Of a DNA stretch of 20,000 bases, positions 2,533 through 15,143 are shown piece by piece. Below the pieces are notes generated by a model that saw only the letters and a list, made by a program, of their open reading frames with translations, made no database searches and was not told where the DNA came from. A program made the translations under genes and the position numbers. This stretch comes from an uncultured bacterium (GTDB lineage Bacteria > B130-G9), in NCBI GenBank assembly GCA_965372715.1, contig CBDVDH010000012.1, positions 53,223 through 73,222 of the forward strand. The letters are read 5' to 3'. Positions within the stretch are counted from its first letter, which is position 1; each line of letters opens with the position of its first letter.

Positions 2533-3390
2533 ATGAACCTAGTAAGAGCGATGCTTTTCGGCACTGTCCAGGGTCTGACCGAGTTCTTGCCGGTCAGTTC
2601 CTCAGGCCATCTAGCCGTCTTTCACCGGCTCTTTGGCGCAAGGGCGGAGACAATGGTTCCGATGGGCGTGATTGCTCACGTCGGAACGCTTCTTGCTGTC
2701 CTCATCTACTTTCGCAGAGACCTCGCGATGTTCGCACGAGCGCTATCCCCCAACGCACTATCAAGCCCGATACGCAAGCCGTCGCTCCTGTTCGCCTCAA
2801 CGGCGGACCAGGACGAGGAGAGTCGCGGTTGGTATCAGCGGGTGCTTGCGATGATCGCAATTGGCACGATTCCGGCTGCAATCGTGGGGCTTGTGTTCAA
2901 AGACGCGATTGAGCACGCCTTTTCGAGCATCAACCTAGTGGGCGCGATGTTCCTTGTTACCGCCGTCGTGCTTTTCCTGACGAGGCTATCGGGCCAGGGC
3001 AAGAAGACCGTCTGGCACTTCTGGCTTTTTGGTGCGCTCTTCATCGGGGTGGCTCAAGCTGTGGCGATAACGCCAGGCATCTCGCGCTCGGGCGCCACGA
3101 TCGCCGCCGCCTTATTCTTGGGCTTCAGGCGAGAATTCGCGGCCAGGTTCTCATTCCTGTTATCCATACCGGCCATAGCGGGGGCTTTCTTGCTCAAACT
3201 CGACGAGATCGCCCAGATGTTCAGCACTCAAGGCGCCTCGGAGACTGCGCTGGTATTCTTGTCGGCCTTTGGGGTCGGATACGCCTCAATAGCGGTCCTT
3301 CTGCGCGTCGTCGGCCGAGGCAAACTTCATCTGTTCGGCTTCTACTGCCTTGCCGCCGGGCTCGTCGCCCTGTTTGCCGTCGGCGCTTAG
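2533..3390 (+). CDS. uppP: Undecaprenyl-diphosphate phosphatase UppP/BacA
   Basis: Signature motifs VQGLTEFLPVSSSGH, PGISRSGATI and FSFLLSIPAI; polytopic hydrophobic profile. Confidence 0.96.
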   Translation: MNLVRAMLFGTVQGLTEFLPVSSSGHLAVFHRLFGARAETMVPMGVIAHVGTLLAVLIYFRRDLAMFARALSPNALSSPIRKPSLLFASTADQDEESRGWYQRVLAMIAIGTIPAAIVGLVFKDAIEHAFSSINLVGAMFLVTAVVLFLTRLSGQGKKTVWHFWLFGALFIGVAQAVAITPGISRSGATIAAALFLGFRREFAARFSFLLSIPAIAGAFLLKLDEIAQMFSTQGASETALVFLSAFGVGYASIAVLLRVVGRGKLHLFGFYCLAAGLVALFAVGA

Positions 3391-3756
3391 CCCGAATAAT
3401 CCAAGGCCGTGACTTCCGTCTGTGTGTGGCGGGCTTTCCGAGGCTGGGTCATAAGTCGTTGCGGTTGTGTAGGGGCGTGGTCTGAAGACCCGCCCTTTCG
3501 AATTGATGGTCGCATAAGATGCCTCGTATCCGCAGGGATTGATGTAGGCGGGCGGGTCTGAGACACCGCCGCTACAGGCCGATTCCGACAATCGCGTCGC
3601 ATAAGAGAACCGCCGCGTTGATCTTGACAATCGGTCGCATTTCCTGTGTCGTTGTTGTCTGAATGGGCAACGAAATCCTCGCCAATTGAATTATGACCCA
3701 GGCTGGAAAGCCTGCCCCACATCTGATCGCATCGGGGGTTTGTGAATGGTTTGCGC
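3390..3756. mobile_element. Non-autonomous nested inverted-repeat element (MITE/REPIN composite), copy 1, 367 bp, flanked by TA on both sides
   Basis: Colinear with 9348-9713 along its whole length. Degenerate outer ends GCCCGAATAAT.../...GAATGGTTTGCGC, middle IR at 3423-3458 / ~3686-3721, inner GTAG-type REP pair at 3469-3496 / 3550-3575. No transposase ORF. Confidence 0.8.
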
Positions 3757-5135
3757 TAGATTAACTTGCCCCTGAGTTCCTGGAGAGCTTGTTTCGACGA
3801 AGCTGCGGCCTGGGCTCTGATGTTCGGTCTTGCGGCTATTTTCGGGAAGTCCTGTTTGAGGAGAAGGTCGATCTCGCCTCGGTTGAACTCCTCATGCTTC
3901 AGGATCATCTGAAGCGATTCGGGGGCGATTTGACCTGATAGAGCCAGCTCGAGACACCTTAGCGCGTTGAAATACCCATGAACGTTGCTCACGCCCTCGC
4001 AGAAGAGAGCGATCGCCTGCTCGGTCTTGCCCGGTTGATAAAGGAGCTCGTCGAGGTCCTTCAGCGAGATCATGGCGCGGACGAGCTCGCTGAGCGCGCT
4101 TTTGCAGTTACCCGCGCCACCGGAGAAGTCAGCGGTCAGGAAGGTTACGAAATCGGTCTCGACCGTGAACATCAGTCTGGACAGGATGCCGGAGAAGTAT
4201 CGCACGCGTTGGCCGAGCGACTGCGCAACGAGCGCCTGAAACGGTTCGAAGTATGAGAGCGAAATGAAGCTCTCTCTTGAGCCTGATCTCGTGCTGATTC
4301 TGCTTCTGAGTCTCGCCTTGTGGAGGCCGAGTTCGAGCTGCGTGTCGATCATGTCCTGGAACTTTACGACGTTCAACGTTTCTGCCCCCTCGCCCTTGAC
4401 ACCCTCTTTGTAGGGCTTCAACAGGGCGCTCATCACCGGTTCATTCAGCGTTTGTACGTGCGTTGTTTTTGCTCTGCGCCCATTTGCCAGCAGCTCGTCG
4501 AGGTCAACCAGATTCAGCACATTATCGTTTCCGAGGGCGAACGTCCTTGAAGCGCCCATTCCCCTTGCTCTATGGAAAAATGCGTCTTCACCTCTCTGGT
4601 GAAGATATCGCACGACCTCGTTCAGGCTTCTGAGCTTCGATGCCAGACCTTCGTCTCGTGGGTTCTGGAGCGATTTCGCGACGTCGGGTCTGATCTCGGT
4701 CAAGAGTCCCAGCGCCCTCTTGTGTTGCGAGAAATACATCACATCGTCGCACAAGTTGAACAGCAGGACTCGCTTGAGGAACCAGAAGTGAGAGAGGAAT
4801 CTTTCCTTGATACTTGTGAGAGTGGTTCTTATCTCGGTGGCGTCCGTCTGGCTGACCCTAGCATAGGATTCTATCAGGGCATCGATACTGGTCATGCACG
4901 AGAGCAGTCGCCTGCTGAGCTTGTCGCAGATAACTTGGAGGTTATGCTTCTTGCTGCAACGGTGGGTAATGTTCTCGACGCTAAATGGCTCGTTGCCCCG
5001 AACGGCGACCTGGGTCATCTTGGAGAACATCTTACCGAGCTCGCTCAAACTCCTGACCGCTTTCCTATTGGCCTCTATGAACTGGCTGTATCGCTGGACG
5101 AGGCGCTTCAGCTCATTGCTTCTCTCACCTGCCAC
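3756..5135 (-). CDS. Uncharacterised 459-aa protein, translationally coupled to the PPDK-like gene; resembles from memory the non-catalytic N- and C-terminal domains of Desulfobacterota-type PEP-synthase-like proteins
   Basis: Long ORF with a GTG start preceded by GAGG, overlapping the upstream gene by 11 nt. Segments RYSQFIEANRKAVRSLSEL, SLNEVVRYLHQRGEDAFF, LNLVDLD, LELGLHKA, RVRYFSGILSRLMFTVE and LKDLDELL. The confidence refers to it being a real gene; the family resemblance is a tentative recollection. Confidence 0.8.
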   Translation of the reverse strand: MAGERSNELKRLVQRYSQFIEANRKAVRSLSELGKMFSKMTQVAVRGNEPFSVENITHRCSKKHNLQVICDKLSRRLLSCMTSIDALIESYARVSQTDATEIRTTLTSIKERFLSHFWFLKRVLLFNLCDDVMYFSQHKRALGLLTEIRPDVAKSLQNPRDEGLASKLRSLNEVVRYLHQRGEDAFFHRARGMGASRTFALGNDNVLNLVDLDELLANGRRAKTTHVQTLNEPVMSALLKPYKEGVKGEGAETLNVVKFQDMIDTQLELGLHKARLRSRISTRSGSRESFISLSYFEPFQALVAQSLGQRVRYFSGILSRLMFTVETDFVTFLTADFSGGAGNCKSALSELVRAMISLKDLDELLYQPGKTEQAIALFCEGVSNVHGYFNALRCLELALSGQIAPESLQMILKHEEFNRGEIDLLLKQDFPKIAARPNIRAQAAASSKQALQELRGKLI

Positions 5136-7938
5136 TGTCGAGCCTCGTCTTTTTTACCTTCGCCGCGATCAGTTTTGCGACCGGGACCATGATCGGCGGG
5201 CAGCATATCTCCGTGATGCCAAGATCGAGCAGTCTCTCGAGGCTATACTCGTTTGAGCAGTGTGTCCCTGCGACGAGTATTCGTATGTTCGGGTTGACGC
5301 GTTTGGCGGCCTCAACGGCATGTCCGACCAATCTCTCGGTACTTTTCTGGATAACCCTGAACGGGTCGCCATAGAACCAGCCCCGGTCGACGTATTCGCC
5401 CAGAAACTCCTCCGCGTCCTCTCTCACGAGATGGTGCGTCGAGGTGGTGAGCTTGTCGGACCTGATCACGATAAGGTTGGTGTGGCAAGCGATCTTGTCC
5501 ATCTCGAATGCGATTCCGCTGATCTCGACAACCGGGACCACCTCGTAGTTGAGGTCAGCTGCGCCGCAGTCAGCCGCAATCCTATCGGCAAGTTCCTGCA
5601 CATAGAGCAGTTCCCCCACGACGGATATGTAGGGAACCAGTATCTCGACGCGCATCTCCTTGTCTTCGGCCCGCATCTTCCGCATGGCGCTCAATATCGC
5701 CTTGATCTCCGTTTCATATACCTGCGGAAGCGTCGTTGCCAGCCGGACCCCTCGTCTGCCCAGTATCGGGTTGTAGTCCTCCTGCCGCCTTTTCTGTTTT
5801 CTGATCGTTCTCACCATTCTCTCGACCTGGTCGCTTTGCAGGCCAACGTCGCCGTTGCTTGAGCCGTCGCTTACCCTGTTCTTCAGGATGTACTTGGCGA
5901 GGTTGATGACGTCAGAGCGTTCCTTGGGGAAGTATTCATACATCGTGTGTTTGCAGAGCCTGATCGCCATGTAGTTCTCATCGATGGTCCGGAATATGCG
6001 CAGGAAGTCCTTCTCTAACAGGGCGTGAAGTTGCTCGCGAGCTCGCGGTTCGTTGGGCGTGCCGACGCTCAGGACATAGTCGCAAAGCGCGAAGTTGACT
6101 CGTTTCTTGAAGAACAGGAGGTCTGTGCGGAAATTGGCCACGCCGTCCGCGCCGAGCCTCTTGGCCGTCGCGTATGTCTCGTGGTCTTCCGCCTGCGCAT
6201 AGACCTTTATGTTGCTGTAATCCTTGACGAGTTCGCAGAAACGCAGCGTGAGCGGGTCCTTGACGCCCGAGACGCGGACCTCCATCCGGTCCCCATATAT
6301 CAGGCCTCGCTGCGCGTCGATAGAAATCGTATCGCCTTCCCTCAGGAGGCCGGGGCGCATTCCATCGCCTCCATACCTGACAGTGCCGGCTACTGGGTCG
6401 ATCGTAACCGATGCCTTCACAATGCTCGGTCTGCCGAGGTATCGCGCGTTGAGCGTCGCGTGCGACAGGACGTTTTTTTGAGACGAAACGATCCCATCCA
6501 CGACTTCCAGCACAGGCATGTGGGACAGCCGCAGCCTGTCGCAGCAGAAAATAACCGGCTCGTTCTTAGACTTGAATTGCCTCACTTTACCGATGTCGAA
6601 GCAGATCCTGCCGGTTGCGTAACCGGGCACGAGGGGGCTGCCCTTCCCAATTGGCTTCATTGAGCCGGGCGGGCCGGATGTTACGGCCGCCGAAAGCGCC
6701 TGCTCAAGCTGCCTCGGGTCTGTTCTGGCGATAACGTCCGCATCGGACACGATTCCCTCCTCAATCATGTCCAGCTGCGCCCGCAGGAAAGCGGCCGGCG
6801 CCATTTTGGCTGGTCTTGCTTGAAGAACGTAGAGCTTGCCGGACTCAAGCGTGAACTCGATGTCCTGAACGTAGCCGGAGTCGAGCTCCAGCCTACGGGC
6901 GATCTCGGTAAGCCTCTCGCAGACTCCCGGATGTGTCGATTGGAGGTCCTTGACCGCGCCCTCCTCGCCGAGGTCCCGAACGACATCGTCGCCCTGAGAT
7001 TGCACGATGATCTGCCCAAACAGCCGCGTGTTGCCCGGCGTTCCGGCCGGTTGACCGGTTGATGGATTCCGGCTGAAGACAACGCCGCTGCCAGATTCGG
7101 CGTCGAGGTTCCCGAAGACCATTCTCTGAACGGCTACTGCTGTCTTCAAGGGTTCCTGGATGTAGTTGATGCGCATGAACTCCCGCACCTGCCTTGTTCT
7201 AGCCGAGAGTATCACAGCCATAATGCAGGCCTTCAACGCTTGCCACGGGTCGTCCGGTACCTGACTGATTGTGAGGTATCGGTCGATGAGGTCCGCGAGA
7301 CTTCCTGCCTGAGAGAGCTTCTGGGCTTCTAGGATGGCCCTGAAACGACTCCTGCCCGTCCCAAGAACAGCACTGCCAAAGCCCTCGATGAACCTTCGGA
7401 AACAATCCAAGAGAAGGATGCGTCGTTCGTCCGAATGACTGAGGCGCTCGAGCATATTCCTTGTGAGGCCAACGTTGCAGACGGTCTCCATGAGGCCCGG
7501 CAGCGATACAGTTCCACCTGATCTAACCGAGACAAGGAGGGGGCAGTCTATGTCCCCGAACAGCCTTTCGGTTCTCTCCTCGAGCCAATGGATGCCCTCT
7601 TTGACTGCTTCCCACAGGCCGTCAGGGAGGAGGAGCTGCTCGATTATTTCACCCGGCGGCGTGTCGGCCCGGTCTATCCCGGAAAGGACCTCCTCGTTTA
7701 GCTTGTTGAACTCCTCGGTCGCCGAGGTTCCGACAATGAAACCCTCTGGACAAGGCATGCCGAGCTCGCATAGCCGCAGCAGGCCGCCGCCCTTTACGCC
7801 CAGGCAGGCGATTCGGAGCCTCTCGTCGCTCTCTAGCGATCCCCCGAGCATGCCCTTGTAGAACCTCAAAACATCAGGAGCGCTCGTCTTCTCTGTCATT
7901 TGTCGCCAAAGGTCCTCATTCGGGTCAGGACTCTTCAC
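5125..7938 (-). CDS. Divergent pyruvate phosphate dikinase (PPDK)-like protein with a degenerate PEP/pyruvate site
   Basis: ATP-grasp motifs GVKG, PLLVSVRSG, PGLMETVCNVGL, VQRMVFGN, SGSGVVFSRNPSTG, QGDDVV, QDIEFTLESGKLYVLQAR; His-swivel SHATLNAR; C-terminal barrel with NPILGRRGVRL. Start uncertain (GTG 7938 or ATG 7899). Confidence 0.9.
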   Translation of the reverse strand: MKSPDPNEDLWRQMTEKTSAPDVLRFYKGMLGGSLESDERLRIACLGVKGGGLLRLCELGMPCPEGFIVGTSATEEFNKLNEEVLSGIDRADTPPGEIIEQLLLPDGLWEAVKEGIHWLEERTERLFGDIDCPLLVSVRSGGTVSLPGLMETVCNVGLTRNMLERLSHSDERRILLLDCFRRFIEGFGSAVLGTGRSRFRAILEAQKLSQAGSLADLIDRYLTISQVPDDPWQALKACIMAVILSARTRQVREFMRINYIQEPLKTAVAVQRMVFGNLDAESGSGVVFSRNPSTGQPAGTPGNTRLFGQIIVQSQGDDVVRDLGEEGAVKDLQSTHPGVCERLTEIARRLELDSGYVQDIEFTLESGKLYVLQARPAKMAPAAFLRAQLDMIEEGIVSDADVIARTDPRQLEQALSAAVTSGPPGSMKPIGKGSPLVPGYATGRICFDIGKVRQFKSKNEPVIFCCDRLRLSHMPVLEVVDGIVSSQKNVLSHATLNARYLGRPSIVKASVTIDPVAGTVRYGGDGMRPGLLREGDTISIDAQRGLIYGDRMEVRVSGVKDPLTLRFCELVKDYSNIKVYAQAEDHETYATAKRLGADGVANFRTDLLFFKKRVNFALCDYVLSVGTPNEPRAREQLHALLEKDFLRIFRTIDENYMAIRLCKHTMYEYFPKERSDVINLAKYILKNRVSDGSSNGDVGLQSDQVERMVRTIRKQKRRQEDYNPILGRRGVRLATTLPQVYETEIKAILSAMRKMRAEDKEMRVEILVPYISVVGELLYVQELADRIAADCGAADLNYEVVPVVEISGIAFEMDKIACHTNLIVIRSDKLTTSTHHLVREDAEEFLGEYVDRGWFYGDPFRVIQKSTERLVGHAVEAAKRVNPNIRILVAGTHCSNEYSLERLLDLGITEICCPPIMVPVAKLIAAKVKKTRLDSGR

Positions 7939-8084: not shown

Positions 8085-8255
8085 TGGACTGCGGCGGCTT
8101 GACGCCGCTTTGATTGGTGGTGGCTTGACACCACCCTCTGATACATCCCCCTTCGACTCAAGAGGCAGCGACTGAACGAATGGACCGTTGCTGATCAGAG
8201 CGGACGCCGCGTCAAGCCGCGGGCAGCGAAAGCGGCGTCAAGCCGCCGCACTCCA
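8085..8255. repeat. REP/REPIN-like doubled palindrome pair
   Basis: TGGACTGCGGCGGCTTGACGCCGCTTT (8085-8111) pairs with AAAGCGGCGTCAAGCCGCCGCACTCCA (8229-8255). A degenerate inner pair GGTGGTGGCTTGACACCACC (8116-8135) / CGCCGCGTCAAGCCGCGG (~8205-8222) lies between them. Confidence 0.85.
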
Positions 8256-9348: not shown

Positions 9349-9713
9349 CCCGAATAATTCGAGGTCATGACTCCGGCGGGTGTGTGGCGGGCTTTCCGAG
9401 GCTGGGTCATAAGTCGTTGCGGTTGTGTAGGGGCGTGGTCTCAGACCTGCCCTCTCTAATTGATGGTCGCATAAGATGCCTCGTATCCGCAGGGATTCAT
9501 GTAGGCGGGCGGGTCTGAGACACCGCCCCTACAGGCCGATTCCGACAATCGCGTCGCAAATGAAAACCGCCGCGTTGATCTTGACAATCGGCCGTATTTC
9601 CTGTATCGTTGTTGTCTGAATGGACAACAAATCCTCGTCAATCGACTTATGACCCAGCCTCGGAAAGCCCGCCCCACATCTCACGCCATCTGCGGTTTAT
9701 GAATAATAAGGGC
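9348..9713. mobile_element. Non-autonomous nested inverted-repeat element, copy 2, 366 bp, flanked by TA on both sides
   Basis: Outer ends TA|GCCCGAATAATTC ... GAATAATAAGGGC|TA (12/15 inverted match including the TA). Middle IR 9381-9416 vs 9643-9678 matches 35/36. Inner GTAGGGGCG.../...CGCCCCTAC REP pair at ~9427-9532. Confidence 0.85.
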
Positions 9714-12421
9714 TAGTTGAGCCTGAGCTCCGGCCAGCAGCGCTCGAAGGCGCCGCTCCGCCCTTTGACGCGAAGGTTGAGGTAAAGCCCCTCGATGTAT
9801 GTGCCGTCTCCCGTCGGGATATGCGGCCAGGGCACACTCTGAAGCCCTTCGTGGTCTGTCGCGACGACCTCTACCAGATAGAGTCCTGCCCCGATTCCAG
9901 AGAGGTCCTCGAACTCGATAGTCGTTAACCACTCGAACAATTGGATGCTGCCCGGGGCGGCAAGGCCCCGCTCCATCGGGAAGGTTAGAGTCGCGCCAGG
10001 GATTCTGACATCGCAAGAGGCAATGGCCGTTGGGTCCCACGGGTCGTTCGCGTCGAAGGCGAAGGCCCTCACAGAAAAGCTGCCGCTCTCGTTTGCGAAC
10101 ATCGCGTTCTGTGAGATGCCGGCTGCGAAGATGAGGGGGTGCCTCGCTCCGTCTGCTATCAAGCTGTTGGGCGCGCCGGGCTCCGTCCCAGGAGCGGTCA
10201 AGAGCGCGGTGAATATCCCGTCCCCGGCGACCGGATCGCTGTCCTGGCCGCGATCATTCATGGAGACCTCAAGGTCCAGGTCGTTGTAGAAGACCTTGAT
10301 GCTGTCGATGAACGATGGCCCGTAGGGCAGGGCTACAACTGTGATATTACCGGCAACGCTCCCGTCAGGATTGACGTCGAGGTAGGAGTCAAGTGTGCCG
10401 GCGGCCCTGAAAGAGGGATACTTCGCGGGGGCGATATGGAGAATGTGCACGAAGTCGGAGATGGTTGTCTCTTCAATGATTATCGTGCTGGCGCTTTCCG
10501 GGTCGATGCTATACAGAAGGGGCCTCTCTTTGCAGGAGACATCAAGTGTGTGGAAATCGCCGTCCGGGAGTGTGCTAACTTCCCAGACCTCGGGCGGCAC
10601 CGTCGTGTCATAGAGCAGCTCGGGCGCAGAGAGGTCTATCTTGAGCCAGGCTGAGATTGTGTTCGGATTTGTGAGCTCGCCCGTTCTGACGTATGTAAGA
10701 CCTCGCTCGGTGCGGTAATCGTCGCCGAGGGAAAGCGGGAAGTCCGTCATCTTCCAGTCCGCGATAAGTATCTCCCCCTCTCGGTTTGGGTCTGCGATCG
10801 GCACGTGAACCATAAGGGCGATATCCTCGTTGCCCGTGGCGACGGTAGTTCGTTCGGGTCTCGGTTGATAGATGAGCGGCAGCACCATGTCATCAGGCGC
10901 GGTGTTGTGGAGCGTTATGCCGAGTGCGCGGGGATCGACGAACGAAAGTGACTTGTCGTATATGCTGGCAACCAGCTGGAACGTATAGAATGCTTGCCTG
11001 CTCAGCTCTGGCAACATGAACGGCCTGTTAGGGGTGAGGCGACAGCCCGAGTTTGTGTGAGTGCGGTTGATCAGGCCATAGTCTGCTCCCATGTCCCCCG
11101 CGTCTCCCTCCTGCATCTGCCAGTGGGTAACCTGGACGTTTGCGAAGTAACAGGTCAGGTACGATCTCGCGAGGTATTTGGCCATTCTGACAAAACCGCG
11201 CTTGTGCTCTGCGCATGGCCAGCTGTACTCGAACGGAGAGCCGTCCTCGGTGTTGTAGAGCTCTATTGACTCCGGGTCCTGACCAGTGATGGCGCTAACT
11301 CTTGCCCTCAGCTCGCTCACGTGCTCCAGGAAGCTCCGTGTCGGCGGCCCGAGACTCGCGTAATGAACGAACATCGAACATCTACCGTAGTGCGTATCGT
11401 CCGGTGCATACTGATGTGGCGAAGGGACCTCAACTTCGGGCGCGCCAAAATACACCTCGTCGGCAGAACGCCACACACCAGAACGGAATCCGTGGAAACC
11501 GTAACCGTCGATGTTCGTCGTGAAGAACTCCGGTGTTGCCCCAAGCGCTGCCATCTCCTCAACAACAGCCTCAATATACGGAACGTCACAGCCGCACGTT
11601 GCTCCGAACAGGAGCTTCGCGTGAGGCGTCAGCCGCTTCATCAGAGGCGCCGCGTTCAAGAGCATCTCGGCGTAGAGTCTGGTCATCCTTCGCCAGTCCT
11701 CCTCAGTCGCGTAAGGTGGATACGGCCTCCAGAACTCGGATTTGCATATACAAGCGTCAGCGTTCGAGCTACCGGAAGGCAGCCAGTTCTGTTCTTCCCA
11801 GATCATCCAACCAGCGATGTACTCGCCGTAGTACTCCGCCGCCGTCTTGCAGTATTTGAGGTATCTTGCAAGCCATTCGGCGCAGATATACGTCGTCTCA
11901 ATGTGGCCTATGTCACGGTCTTCGTGATCGTAAGATGTTTTTCCGTCAGGCTCATCAGCGGAGCGGACGTAGAAGCACCACTCCTGACCTCCGTCGCACG
12001 TGCTCGGTTTGTCAGGTGTGTAAAGCCAGTCAGGGTAATAGACGGGATTGCTAAATGAGAGCGTGACCATCGTCTTTATGCCGCGGTCGTGGCAGTCCCT
12101 AAATGCGTCGAGCGTAACAATGTCAACGTCCGAGAAGACAGGCACGCCCATCGGGTCGGTGTGCTTCTGCATCTCCGCCCACGAAAGAGGCGTGTCCCAA
12201 TGGGAAACGACGAACCAGGAGGCGCCAACGTCGTAACCTTGATTCTGAAGGACGCGGCCATATCGCACGGCAGAGCCCGCATGAGGAAACGACATCGCCA
12301 CGCCGAAGTGGTTCTCGGGGCCCTCTCCCGAGCCTCGCAGCTCGAAATGTCTCGCCGAACACAAGCTGGCACAAGACGACAGAAAAAGGCCCAGAAGGGC
12401 AAGATACGCTGCTTTCTTCAT
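9713..12421 (-). CDS. Exported (possibly lipoprotein) clan GH-A glycoside hydrolase-like protein (GH5/GH39-like barrel) with C-terminal anchor-type domains
   Basis: Signal peptide with a lipobox-like LSSC. Barrel motifs WMIWEEQN (acid/base position), AKLLFGA, DGYGFHGF, LYNTEDG (nucleophile position), DYGLI and RQAFYTF. C-terminal MNDRGQDSDPVAGDGIFT motif. Confidence 0.65.
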   Translation of the reverse strand: MKKAAYLALLGLFLSSCASLCSARHFELRGSGEGPENHFGVAMSFPHAGSAVRYGRVLQNQGYDVGASWFVVSHWDTPLSWAEMQKHTDPMGVPVFSDVDIVTLDAFRDCHDRGIKTMVTLSFSNPVYYPDWLYTPDKPSTCDGGQEWCFYVRSADEPDGKTSYDHEDRDIGHIETTYICAEWLARYLKYCKTAAEYYGEYIAGWMIWEEQNWLPSGSSNADACICKSEFWRPYPPYATEEDWRRMTRLYAEMLLNAAPLMKRLTPHAKLLFGATCGCDVPYIEAVVEEMAALGATPEFFTTNIDGYGFHGFRSGVWRSADEVYFGAPEVEVPSPHQYAPDDTHYGRCSMFVHYASLGPPTRSFLEHVSELRARVSAITGQDPESIELYNTEDGSPFEYSWPCAEHKRGFVRMAKYLARSYLTCYFANVQVTHWQMQEGDAGDMGADYGLINRTHTNSGCRLTPNRPFMLPELSRQAFYTFQLVASIYDKSLSFVDPRALGITLHNTAPDDMVLPLIYQPRPERTTVATGNEDIALMVHVPIADPNREGEILIADWKMTDFPLSLGDDYRTERGLTYVRTGELTNPNTISAWLKIDLSAPELLYDTTVPPEVWEVSTLPDGDFHTLDVSCKERPLLYSIDPESASTIIIEETTISDFVHILHIAPAKYPSFRAAGTLDSYLDVNPDGSVAGNITVVALPYGPSFIDSIKVFYNDLDLEVSMNDRGQDSDPVAGDGIFTALLTAPGTEPGAPNSLIADGARHPLIFAAGISQNAMFANESGSFSVRAFAFDANDPWDPTAIASCDVRIPGATLTFPMERGLAAPGSIQLFEWLTTIEFEDLSGIGAGLYLVEVVATDHEGLQSVPWPHIPTGDGTYIEGLYLNLRVKGRSGAFERCWPELRLN

Positions 12422-12681: not shown

Positions 12682-12807
12682 GTAGGGGCGGGGTCTGAAG
12701 ACCCGCCCGTTCTCAGTGATAGGCCGTATCGAGGGTGGCGTGCTCAATTGGATCGGCCTAGGGGGGCGGGTCTGAGACACCGCCCATACGCGGCAATTCC
12801 GACGATA
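12682..12807. repeat. GTAG-type REPIN related to the inner layer of the 367-bp element; overlaps the 3' end of methyltransferase copy A
   Basis: GTAGGGGCGGGGTCTGAAGACCCGCCC (12682-12708) and GGGCGGGTCTGAGACACCGCCCATAC (12764-12789), followed by ATTCCGAC as in copies 1 and 2. Confidence 0.8.
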
Positions 12808-13468
12808 CCGCCTTGATCGCGATTGCGCAGCCGCGGTTCCTGTATAAAAGGTGATCGAGCCTCAGCGCGAGCTCCCTCAGAAGCCAGGGCAGCACGAGCT
12901 TTTTGCTGAACAGCCACGCAAGGTCCCGCAGATACCAGAGCTGATAGAGCGCCTGAGCAATTGTGCCGCCGTATTTCTCCACACCGACTACCTTCAGGCC
13001 CGCCGCGTGGCACTTGCAGACAAGCTCTCCGACCTCATAGCCCGGGCGGACATGACCCCACTGCGCCTCGGCCTCCGACCATTGCCTGGCACGCCGTCCC
13101 AGGGGCAACACGAGCTCCTTGAAGTCGTGCTCTACCGCTGGCGTTGTGAGAACAAGGCTGCCTTGAGGCCTCAGGACGCGGGCGATCTCAGCCAGCATGA
13201 AGCAGTCGTCTTCGATATGTTCGAGCACGTCGAGGCACAGCGCCGCGTCGAACGAATTGTCCCGAAAAGGAAAGGTCGAGCCATCATAGAGCACGAGGTT
13301 GGGAAACGTCCTCCGCCCGACCTCGAGATTAACGATGCGCCACGATGCGCTTGTGCCGGGCAGCGGGATCGTCCCGCAGCCCACGTTGAGAATCGTTTCG
13401 GCCCCTTCCGGAGCACTCGGCAGCCACCGTCGAATCGTCAAATGCCGTCTCTTAACCGCAATAGTCAT
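12758..13468 (-). CDS. Class I SAM-dependent methyltransferase (Methyltransf_11-like), copy A
   Basis: Motif I ILNVGCG, FPFRDNSFDAALCLDVLEHIEDD, EIARVLRPQG and GHVRPGY. Confidence 0.88.
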   Translation of the reverse strand: MTIAVKRRHLTIRRWLPSAPEGAETILNVGCGTIPLPGTSASWRIVNLEVGRRTFPNLVLYDGSTFPFRDNSFDAALCLDVLEHIEDDCFMLAEIARVLRPQGSLVLTTPAVEHDFKELVLPLGRRARQWSEAEAQWGHVRPGYEVGELVCKCHAAGLKVVGVEKYGGTIAQALYQLWYLRDLAWLFSKKLVLPWLLRELALRLDHLLYRNRGCAIAIKAVSSELPRMGGVSDPPP

Positions 13469-13476
13469 AGGTCGAA

Positions 13477-13505
13477 TTGTTACAGATGGCTCTATACGTT
13501 TGCAA
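13477..13505 (-). promoter_or_regulatory. Putative promoter of methyltransferase A, leaderless
   Basis: Minus strand TTGCAA-17nt-TAACAA, then 8 nt to the ATG with no SD; the same layout is conserved upstream of copy B. Confidence 0.55.
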
Positions 13506-13518
13506 CCAGAGCAAGGAA

Positions 13519-13546
13519 TTGCGATTCTTGACGACGCCTCTATGAT
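13519..13546 (+). promoter_or_regulatory. Putative sigma70 promoter for the thermonuclease
   Basis: TTGCGA (13519-13524), a 16-nt spacer, then TATGAT (13541-13546); back-to-back with the methyltransferase A promoter. Confidence 0.35.
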
Positions 13547-13623
13547 GATTCAGTGCGTCGTTTGACCCGACGGTGTAACGAGACTGTTCTGCTTGCCCGC
13601 GTCATTAACGGAGTGCGGAGCTG

Positions 13624-14157
13624 ATGTTCTCAGTAAGGACGCGTAGGATTGCGATTGCAGCCATCGCGGCGTTGGCGGTGTGTATGCTGGCGGTGAGAGC
13701 TTACCGCTGGGTTGCGCCTCGCGCGTCATCGCAGCCTCCGGTGCCAAGCTCGCGCACGCGAGGCCTTGAGAGGTATCCTTATTTCTGCACCAAGGTCATT
13801 GACGGCGACACGATCGTCGTCAAATCACTCGGACCCGTCAGGCTGATAGGGATCGACACGCCGGAGATGAACTACGACTTCGGCGTTCCGCAGCCGTTTG
13901 CCGAAGAGGCGAGGGAGTTTTGTAGGCGGCTTGTTCTCAGGAAAACAGTGTCGCTTGAGTTTGACGAAGTGAAGCGCGACAAGTATGGCCGCGCGCTCGC
14001 CTATGTCTTCGTTGGTGATGCTTTCGTCAACGCCGAACTCGTCAAGGCGGGTCTGGCAAAGGCCTACCACATTGCCCCGAACGACAGATACAAGGGCGAG
14101 TTCCGTCAGCTTCAGCAAGATGCAAAGGCCAAGGGACTCGGCCTTTGGCGCGAGTGA
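13624..14157 (+). CDS. Thermonuclease (staphylococcal nuclease/SNase family), exported or membrane-anchored
   Basis: Motifs KVIDGDTI, VRLIGIDTPE, DKYGRALAYV, VNAELVKAGLA and GLGLW; hydrophobic N-terminus; GGAG RBS upstream. Confidence 0.95.
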   Translation: MFSVRTRRIAIAAIAALAVCMLAVRAYRWVAPRASSQPPVPSSRTRGLERYPYFCTKVIDGDTIVVKSLGPVRLIGIDTPEMNYDFGVPQPFAEEAREFCRRLVLRKTVSLEFDEVKRDKYGRALAYVFVGDAFVNAELVKAGLAKAYHIAPNDRYKGEFRQLQQDAKAKGLGLWRE

Positions 14158-14311
14158 GCTTTGTGACCCCCTCAGGGCACAGAGGTCGTTTAGGGCGGCG
14201 CTTGTCTCCGCCTAAGGCGGTTCCGGCGGCGCATACCAGAAATCGGGATGACGTTCGCCGCGGCGAATCCCTACCCAAATGCCTCTCGGCACCGTTTTCT
14301 GGCCTCTGGAC

Positions 14312-14983
14312 TCAAGCGCGAACTGCCTTGATCGCGATCGCGCAGCCGCGGTTCCCGTAGAGTATGTGATCGAGCCTTAGCGCCAGCTTCATCAGAAGCC
14401 GGGGCAAGACCAGTTTCCTACTGAATAACCACGCTAGGTCCCGCAGATACCATAGCTGATAGAGCACCTGAGCAATTGTCCCGCCGTATTTCTCCACACC
14501 GACTACGGAAAGCCCCGCTGCGTGGCACTTGCAGACAAGTTCCCCGACGTCGTAGCCGGAACGAACCTGGCCCCAGTGCGCCTCGACCGCCGACCATTGC
14601 CTCGCGCGCTTGTCCGGCGGCAAAGCGATCTCCTTGAAGTCATGTTCAATTGCGGGATTGGTGAGGATGAGGGCGCCTCGAGGCTTCAGAACGCGGCTGA
14701 TTTCGGTGAGCATCAAGCTGTCGTCCTCCACGTTCACAAGCACGCCGAGGCATAGAGCGGCGTCGAACGAATTGTCCCGAAAAGGAAAGACCGAGCCATC
14801 ATACAGAACAAAATCGAGAAATGGCCTTCGCTCAACGTCAAGGTTGACGATTCGGAGGGCTTGGCTTAGACCGGGCACCGGGATCGTCCCGCACCCGACG
14901 TTGAGAATGATTCCGTCCCCTTCCACAGCACTCGGCAGCCACCGCCGAATCGTCAAATGCCGCCTCTTAACCGCGATTGTCAT
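14312..14983 (-). CDS. Class I SAM-dependent methyltransferase, copy B (paralog of copy A)
   Basis: Gapless alignment to copy A with about 172/221 identical residues by manual count. Start placed at ATG 14983 by homology (MTIAVKRRH) and promoter spacing, rather than GTG 15025. Confidence 0.85.
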   Translation of the reverse strand: MTIAVKRRHLTIRRWLPSAVEGDGIILNVGCGTIPVPGLSQALRIVNLDVERRPFLDFVLYDGSVFPFRDNSFDAALCLGVLVNVEDDSLMLTEISRVLKPRGALILTNPAIEHDFKEIALPPDKRARQWSAVEAHWGQVRSGYDVGELVCKCHAAGLSVVGVEKYGGTIAQVLYQLWYLRDLAWLFSRKLVLPRLLMKLALRLDHILYGNRGCAIAIKAVRA

Positions 14984-14991
14984 ACGCCGAA

Positions 14992-15020
14992 TTGTTACAA
15001 ACATGCGCTTGTGTCTGCAA
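14992..15020 (-). promoter_or_regulatory. Putative promoter of methyltransferase B, leaderless
   Basis: Minus strand TTGCAG-17nt-TAACAA-TTCGGCGT-ATG, the same geometry as copy A. Confidence 0.55.
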
Positions 15021-15143
15021 CCCACTCAAGAAGAGGAGTTTCCCCAATCGTGAGCGGGGAATCGCTGGTTTATGGGCTATATGGTTGTGATTCCGTACGG
15101 TAACAACTGGAATTGGAGCTGACCGGAGGCCGGGCATACGGGC

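Follow-up and report, generated by a model that had tools for sequence, protein, structure and literature searches.

In a window of 20,000 nucleotides from an uncultured bacterium (the whole stretch of DNA analysed here: contig CBDVDH010000012.1 of assembly GCA_965372715.1, positions 53,223 to 73,222), two adjacent genes on the minus strand encode a protein related to pyruvate phosphate dikinase (PPDK) and a partner protein that matches no known family. The PPDK-like gene (5125..7938) encodes 937 aa from a GTG at 7938 or 924 aa if the ATG at 7899 is the start. This start is ambiguous, as the 924-aa form present in the protein collection fits the ATG. The partner gene (3756..5135) encodes 459 aa from a GTG that aligns with the ATG starts of its homologs. 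This GTG (5135-5133) lies inside the 3′ end of the PPDK-like gene, upstream of the TGA of the latter (5127-5125), and is preceded seven nt upstream by a GAGG (5146-5143), together forming what reads from the sequence as a coupling junction (5125..5146). A first-pass annotation of this DNA had described an 11-nt overlap of two open reading frames (ORFs) at these positions, without central-metabolism neighbours, and both points hold. The pair is flanked by a convergent bacA and a divergent ydjM, with mreB and mreC farther out (Pfam assignments). The other neighbours in the window are two methyltransferases, a nuclease and an M6 peptidase, and no central carbon metabolism gene was found among them. 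Because homologs at 38-96% identity exist for each protein, both ORFs are judged to be real genes, not chance ORFs. Judging from the source names of close homologs, the window belongs to Candidatus Coatesbacteria. Neither protein has a membrane-type hydrophobic stretch, the maximal 19-residue Kyte-Doolittle means being 1.56 and 1.12.

The larger protein carries the domains PPDK_N (PF01326), PEP-utilizers (PF00391) and PEP-utilizers_C (PF02896), each above its Pfam gathering cut-off, and aligns over its full length with the PPDK of Clostridium symbiosum (1kbl; E 6e-99). Its score against the TIGR01828 equivalog model is 516.4 bits, which is below the cut-off of 843.45. For residue comparison, we aligned this paralog with 12 clade relatives, the canonical PPDK of its own genome and three other canonical PPDKs. 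In the ATP-grasp (nucleotide-binding) domain (6790..7806, minus strand as for all features of the two genes; about aa 45-383; PF01326), the ATP-site motifs G-x-K-G, VRSG, QD-x-EFT and LQ-x-R are kept clade-wide as in canonical PPDK, and the motifs with K22, R92, D321/E323 and Q335/R337 (1kbl numbering) are retained in the paralog. In the swivelling phospho-His domain (6304..6561; aa 460-545; PF00391), His493 (codon 6460-6462) aligns with the catalytic His of 1kbl and is invariant in the clade. The motif around it is (K/R/E)N-x-x-SHATL-x-AR, replacing GGMTSHAAVVAR. At the Thr position, two residues ahead of the catalytic His, the clade has L, T or S. This Thr is the residue on which the PPDK kinase/pyrophosphorylase PDRP (DUF299) acts, and the partner has no Pfam match to the PDRP family.

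The TIM-barrel (PEP-utilizers_C) domain, which houses the acceptor site (5155..6234; aa 569-928; PF02896), has changed considerably more. We take D620, N768, D769, C831, R561, R617 and E745 of the C. symbiosum enzyme to be residues of the site for phosphoenolpyruvate (PEP), pyruvate and Mg2+. The first four are replaced in the paralog by K663, D828, K829 and A890, respectively. The last three are kept as R604, R660 and E805, as is H893. Further canonical invariants are swapped as well (G to R826, F/Y to H835, G/S to H836 and G to C894). The positions that are both changed and clade-invariant are K663, H664, R826, D828, K829, H835, H836, A/S890 and C894. In the numbering of the canonical PPDK of the same genome, G767, F776 and G777 have become R, H and H. 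The canonical LDPPLHEF loop has given way to (C/I/V)KHTM-x-E(Y/F) in the paralog clade (F in one of 13 sequences). The motifs IRL-x-KHTM-x-E(Y/F), IR(S/T)DKLT(T/A)ST and V(A/S)G-x-HC-x-N are common to the 13 clade members, which span 42-88% identity. Because the replacements are identical in all 13 members down to 42% identity, we read the acceptor site as rebuilt and held by selection, not decayed. The first-pass annotation had stated that the ATP-activating module and the phospho-carrier His are kept while the canonical acceptor site is lost. The first part is borne out by the alignment to 1kbl and to the clade relatives. The second part stands for the replacement of D620, N768, D769 and C831, but a new clade-invariant set of residues has taken their place, so that "rebuilt" describes the site better than "lost". 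The paralog is very probably not a canonical PPDK.

We then looked for the canonical enzyme in the same and related genomes. The genome of origin (96% complete) has a canonical PPDK on contig C22, with 1393.7 bits against TIGR01828 and every canonical motif, and a gene on contig C64 resembling enzyme I (EI) of the PEP-dependent phosphotransferase system (PTS). It contains only two PPDK_N genes and no PEP synthase (PpsA) gene above the cut-off. Likewise, each of seven Candidatus Coatesbacteria genomes (one family, four genera) encodes one canonical PPDK (1374-1402 bits) and one paralog (434-518 bits). The scores in the seven genomes are therefore bimodal, with none between 518 and 1374 bits. 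A separate canonical ppdK, the presence of which had been suggested as a check on the unusual role of the paralog, is thus found both in the genome of origin and in 7/7 genomes of the phylum.

The partner gene is also present in all seven genomes of the phylum. In six of them, the paralog and the partner are on the same contig, 20-30 nt apart according to match coordinates; in the seventh, they are at contig ends. A scan of genome contigs found the PPDK-like gene directly upstream of the partner gene, on the same strand, in 5/5 true loci. A sixth locus (L010, on a Clostridia contig) proved to be a chance match to the pattern RGNEPFSxEN inside an unrelated ORF and was dropped from the counts. 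Nine metagenome loci were also retrieved, two of which (L014 and L018) begin inside the partner gene and are not scorable, while L015 is the same contig as L008. The same arrangement was found in all seven metagenome loci with upstream sequence. In total, the pair is adjacent in 12/12 testable related loci from genome and metagenome contigs. The junctions measure -17, -11, -4 or +1 nt in nine related loci; that of L019 is -4 or +14 nt according to the ATG chosen.

Among close Coatesbacteria, the whole ydjM-pair-bacA-mreBC block is syntenic, and these loci are therefore not independent evidence. Two other loci keep the pair among entirely different flanks. The first (L009; 63-66% identity) is flanked by genes for a sigma-54 activator, a PMT_2 glycosyltransferase and YidC, the PMT_2 gene starting 9 nt past the partner stop. 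The second (L019; 38-43% identity, 67% GC) is flanked by genes for HSP20, a member of the DAHP/KDO8P-synthase family and an ABC/FtsX transporter. A 1343-aa ORF of the latter locus (L019:3349-7380, plus strand) was considered as a fusion of both genes and rejected, as translation showed its first part to be out-of-frame GC-rich junk. ORFs listed for DNA with 67% GC call for a check of their frame, and the PPDK-like and partner genes of this locus are separate and adjacent. The co-occurrence and adjacency proposed for verification in the first-pass annotation were thus observed in every testable related locus, two of which have unrelated flanks. Judged from gene content and order, the two genes are obligately linked and tightly coupled, and a functional and physical partnership between the paralog and the partner is likely.

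A side observation concerns the three independent contexts, in which the neighbours of the pair are envelope-related or use PEP or polyprenyl phosphate. These neighbours are bacA in the window (2533-3390), PMT_2 (L009:7389-8855), and the DAHP/KDO8P-synthase family gene and a MacB/FtsX-type ABC transporter (L019:1832-2779 and L019:7564-11617). This resemblance may be a coincidence.

The partner has no match in Pfam, NCBIfam or PADLOC. More specifically, it matches neither the PTS protein HPr in Pfam nor the rifampin phosphotransferase (RPH) model NF041857. RPH chains were not among the fold-search matches listed, the fold itself being still possible. With the PADLOC defence models, the only match of the pair was a chance-level one of the PPDK-like protein to LmuB (E 0.0043, 13 bits). 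A profile-profile comparison of the partner with the PPDK-like protein gave no homology (probability 0.2%). Close homologs of the partner come only from Coatesbacteria-type sources, plus one at 39% identity. To reach more distant ones, we searched 1.84 billion cluster representatives exhaustively with a partner profile and obtained 36 proteins at E up to 0.001, among which P0033 is a low-complexity false hit. Most of the distant relatives have 330-610 aa and no Pfam family. A scan of viral contigs for distant stand-alone relatives found none. In 42 aligned sequences of this superfamily, N23, R176, H179, H272 and R310 are invariant.

AlphaFold2 (AF2) predicted the whole partner with a pLDDT of 85 and a pTM of 0.77, and aa 195-459 alone with a pLDDT of 92. 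The predicted layout is a four-helix bundle (aa 1-193), an alpha/beta domain (197-356) and a helical C-terminal domain. Using the whole model, Foldseek returned nothing better than E 0.011, and a VIA-wide fold search returned only generic helical bundles with Z up to 14.2, which is within the noise range for bundles. For aa 195-459, the best alpha/beta match was the C-terminal domain of MotA (Z 6.7; root-mean-square deviation 3.6; 99 residues), below the level that the tool counts as meaningful. A profile search of the PDB retrieved only designed helical bundles (E 0.0016 or weaker) and no sequence relative, and the ESM Atlas gave no usable match. We therefore treat the fold predicted for the partner as unassigned rather than new.

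Two segments of the partner are its most conserved clade motifs. The loop at aa 46-64 (4944..5000) has the pattern R-G-N-E-P-F-S-x-E-N-I-x-H-R-C-x-K-K, in which R46, N48, E49, P50, F51, E54, N55, H58, R59, C60, K62 and K63 are invariant in 13 sequences. The segment at aa 113-136 (4728..4799) has the pattern F-x4-W-F ... L-C-D-D, with F113, W118, F119, L124, L128 and D131 invariant in the same alignment. Both were predicted to contact the barrel when we modelled the whole partner with residues 425-937 of the large protein, that is, with the His domain and the barrel and with the ATP-grasp domain left out. The ipSAE values of three runs were 0.42, 0.62 and 0.61 (median 0.61), while the best of three controls reached 0.00. 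When this tool was calibrated, the mark was reached for 116 of 157 solved complexes as against 2 of 215 mismatched pairs, figures that are only a rough guide here since the alignments were self-supplied. At least 48% of contacts recur between the three runs, and the pLDDT of the partner is at least 76. The complex prediction suggested as a check in the first-pass annotation therefore gave a model that passes its controls.

On the large protein, the predicted low-error interface comprises residues 582-613, 664-676, 839-862, 896 and 914-916. These segments are the loops of the catalytic face, where the barrel strands end C-terminally, and they include R604, D606 and H664. On the partner, it comprises residues 48-64 and 114-136, the latter being predicted to pack on F610, R604, D606 and H664 of the barrel. 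Clade-invariant positions are over-represented in this interface, both on the barrel chain (19/36 vs. 135/513) and on the partner (11/26 vs. 95/459). Clade-specific swaps of canonical invariants located there include Q582, E584, D585, D606, H664, G857, R861, N896 and P914. The model thus supports binding of the partner to the rebuilt catalytic face of the barrel.

A link between the partner fold and dikinases was also found outside the pair. When longer proteins were searched with the partner profile, a single match was obtained, P0067 (1703 aa; E 1.1e-9). The region of P0067 that aligns with the partner family spans residues 320-604 (hhalign probability 98.2%, E 4e-14). It keeps the equivalents of N23, H179, H272, R310 and Y313, and that of R176 is shifted by one position. 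The same chain contains a PEP-utilizers His domain (889-936), a PPDK_N domain of the PEPS/RPH type (1243-1549) and a low-molecular-weight (LMW) phosphatase domain (LMWPc; 1560-1698). Residues 1-320, 604-889 and 936-1243 gave no match. P0067 thus resembles the pair in combining a partner-like module with a swivelling His domain and an ATP-grasp domain. It differs in being a single chain, with the order partner-like module, His domain, PEPS/RPH-type ATP-grasp domain and LMW phosphatase, and in having no TIM barrel. At the level of domain content, P0067 ties the partner fold independently to the swivelling-His dikinase chassis, and not to the barrel-docking model.

The TIM barrel of PPDK, PEP synthase and enzyme I, all of them textbook enzymes, is considered to be reserved for PEP and pyruvate. 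Compared with PPDK (EC 2.7.9.1; TIGR01828; C. symbiosum structures 1kbl, 1kc7 and 1dik), the paralog has the same order of ATP-grasp domain, swivelling His domain and TIM barrel and can be aligned end-to-end. It also keeps the ATP-site motifs, the catalytic His and the equivalents of R561, R617 and E745 in the barrel. However, it fails the equivalog score (516 vs. 843 bits), has K, D, K and A as acceptor residues and has lost the GG in front of the catalytic His. Unlike PPDK, it is always found beside the partner gene, in genomes that hold a normal PPDK as well. The couple formed by EI and HPr in the PTS is comparable in that a small protein, encoded next to a PEP-utilizer enzyme but separate from it, receives the phosphate of the enzyme's swivelling His. 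Nevertheless, EI lacks an ATP-grasp domain and takes its phosphate from PEP at an intact barrel, whereas the paralog has an ATP-grasp domain and an altered PEP site. Moreover, the partner has 459 aa and no HPr match.

HpeHI is reported to be a split small-molecule dikinase, with an ATP-grasp subunit (HpeI) and a subunit carrying the swivel and substrate domains (HpeH) (PMC12167813), and RPH is reported to send phosphate to a non-pyruvate acceptor site (PMC4844700). HpeHI, phenylphosphate synthase and RPH combine an ATP-grasp and swivelling-His chassis with an acceptor site other than the PEP/pyruvate barrel, in a functional unit that can span two polypeptides, and the pair would resemble them in these respects. 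The pair differs from HpeHI in that its dikinase is complete, including the barrel, and that the additional polypeptide is a separate protein with an unrecognised fold. Our literature search, which did not cover supplements, found nothing on this PPDK-like clade or on its partner.

The anatomy of the pair is unusual and coherent, and the pair is probably an undescribed ATP-driven phosphate-transfer machine. The reading that we prefer as a whole is that of a neofunctionalised PPDK paralog working as an obligate heteromer with its partner, to which we give a probability of about 0.5. The 937-aa protein would have given up PEP/pyruvate interconversion. Its intact ATP-grasp domain would most likely still use ATP to load phosphate on His493, as the retained residues suggest. 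In its TIM barrel, the pyruvate and Mg2+ residues would have been exchanged for a new, strictly conserved and more basic set. The translationally coupled partner is predicted to bind the catalytic face stoichiometrically through its two clade-specific loops. If the partner is bound in this way, the working unit would be a heteromer with a joint acceptor site between barrel and partner. The His domain would swing to this composite site, where His493 would hand its phosphate to one of two recipients, a partner residue or a ligand bound at the conserved His/Arg site of the partner. Taken separately, the transfer of phosphate to an acceptor that the partner provides or binds has, in our estimate, slightly less than an even chance of being right. 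The interpretation given in the first-pass annotation is thus supported in part. The acceptor or acceptor-binding role that it assigned to the partner stays a proposal, and the analysis speaks neither for nor against its alternative of a signalling device.

One form of this proposal makes the partner family a new protein phospho-acceptor. The ATP-charged His493 would phosphorylate a partner residue on the rebuilt barrel, giving a phosphorelay on a metabolic chassis. Candidates for the phosphorylated residue would lie in the docking loop (His58 and Cys60) or among the residues invariant in the superfamily (His179, His272 and Arg310). If so, a fusion of the P0067 type would carry, next to this module, its own LMW protein phosphatase for removal of the mark. 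We consider this form of the proposal rather unlikely.

Several observations weigh against the heteromeric phosphotransfer unit that we favour. The near-universal GG preceding the catalytic His has become K/R/E-N, which could impair the phosphocarrier function. The His domain (425-555) was part of the modelled chain, yet contributes 0 residues to the low-error interface. The docking of the His493 domain on the partner, which the first-pass annotation had envisaged, was thus not seen, the interface being on the catalytic face of the barrel. The complex score expresses the confidence of the model in its own prediction, and an enrichment of conserved residues at the interface is to some extent what any active-site face, or a predictor driven by alignments, would give. 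The superfamily-invariant N23, R176, H179, H272 and R310 all lie outside the predicted interface, so that the docking model leaves the core function of the partner fold unexplained. P0067 has neither the barrel nor an equivalent of the docking loop at aa 46-64. Finally, a single family-level lineage, in which synteny is conserved, contributes most of the linked loci, and the independent contexts are only three.

Among the alternatives, the one that survives best holds that a new small-molecule acceptor is bound by the barrel without help from the partner, which would be a stoichiometric regulator or lid over the mouth of the active site, gating the access of the phospho-His domain and performing no chemistry. 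The predicted interface would suit such a lid, as it covers the catalytic face where the His domain must dock. In the barrel, R604 and R660, which bind phosphate, and E805, a metal ligand, are still present, and the invariant K, H and R residues added to them might accommodate an anionic ligand. The N-terminal four-helix bundle of the partner also resembles sensor domains, at the level of generic bundles only (Z up to 14.2). However, a subunit would account at least equally well for the strict co-inheritance of the two genes and for their translational coupling, both of which hold over 38-43% identity. In addition, the partner fold is fused into P0067, a dikinase without a barrel, which argues for a role with the chassis beyond barrel capping. 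Such a regulator or lid is, in our opinion, an unlikely explanation.

A catalytically dead paralog, serving as a mere scaffold for the partner without any phosphotransfer, is less probable still. The loss of the canonical acceptor residues and of the GG in the His loop would be expected of a pseudoenzyme, as would a TIGR01828 score far under the cut-off. Nevertheless, the ATP-site motifs and His493 are invariant in 13 sequences down to 42% identity, which would be unexpected if the chemistry had been abandoned.

We find it quite improbable that the paralog is still a PEP/pyruvate enzyme with relocated residues, C894 standing in for C831 and D828 for the metal ligand D769, and with an incidental or modulatory partner. 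R604, R660 and E805 are indeed retained, and an invariant Cys and an Asp are found four positions after the lost Cys and one position before the lost Asp, respectively. Against this, the LDPPLHEF loop is replaced, G767, F776 and G777 have become R, H and H, the scores are bimodal without intermediates, and a normal PPDK is encoded in 7/7 genomes.

The weakest explanation, an adjacency due to inherited synteny without any functional link between the two genes, suits the syntenic ydjM-pair-bacA-mreBC block of close Coatesbacteria but is very hard to reconcile with a pair that remains adjacent, overlapping or near-touching in L009 and L019, where all flanks differ, with a complex model that passes its controls and with the fusion of the partner fold to a dikinase in P0067.

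In the obligate heteromer that we favour, the whole three-domain machine would have been kept, its barrel apparently rebuilt into a docking and reaction surface for a second protein, the fold of which is unrecognised. If ATP-driven phosphotransfer with a new acceptor is confirmed, the pair would define a new branch of the dikinase family. It would also give a first functional handle on the unannotated partner superfamily and link this superfamily to the giant dikinase-phosphatase fusion P0067. As a core feature of a candidate phylum without a cultured member, the pair bears on the physiology of this phylum.

Finally, we made some observations on the surroundings of the pair. Between the partner gene and bacA, a 111-aa ORF (3387-3722, minus strand) belongs to no Pfam or NCBIfam family and has no tblastn match in any of 10 related loci; it was not counted as a member of the unit. 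The gap between the partner gene and bacA is about 365 nt in the window vs. about 100 nt in L005, so that the window seems to carry a short strain-specific insertion in this region. On the other side, the intergenic region between ydjM and the PPDK-like gene (8094-8246) contains three copies of GCGGCTTGACGC, one on the plus strand and two on the minus strand. Each copy is located in a small GC-stem hairpin, inside a 57-nt imperfect inverted repeat. Shuffled sequences are expected to contain 0.27 copies, and none of 200 shuffles reached three. This motif looks strain-specific, as it is absent from all the related loci fetched, including L005, which is 94-96% identical, and it may be a small repeat element or an operator.

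Farther from the pair, a 902-aa ORF (9713-12421, minus strand) has no Pfam family, its only signal being a sub-threshold match to "choice-of-anchor X" (22.5 bits vs. a cut-off of 25). It is kept at 69-94% in three related loci, where it adjoins ydjM. Beyond it (12758-15025), a plus-strand gene for a staphylococcal-nuclease homolog of the secreted type lies between two class-I S-adenosylmethionine (SAM) methyltransferase genes, both on the minus strand.

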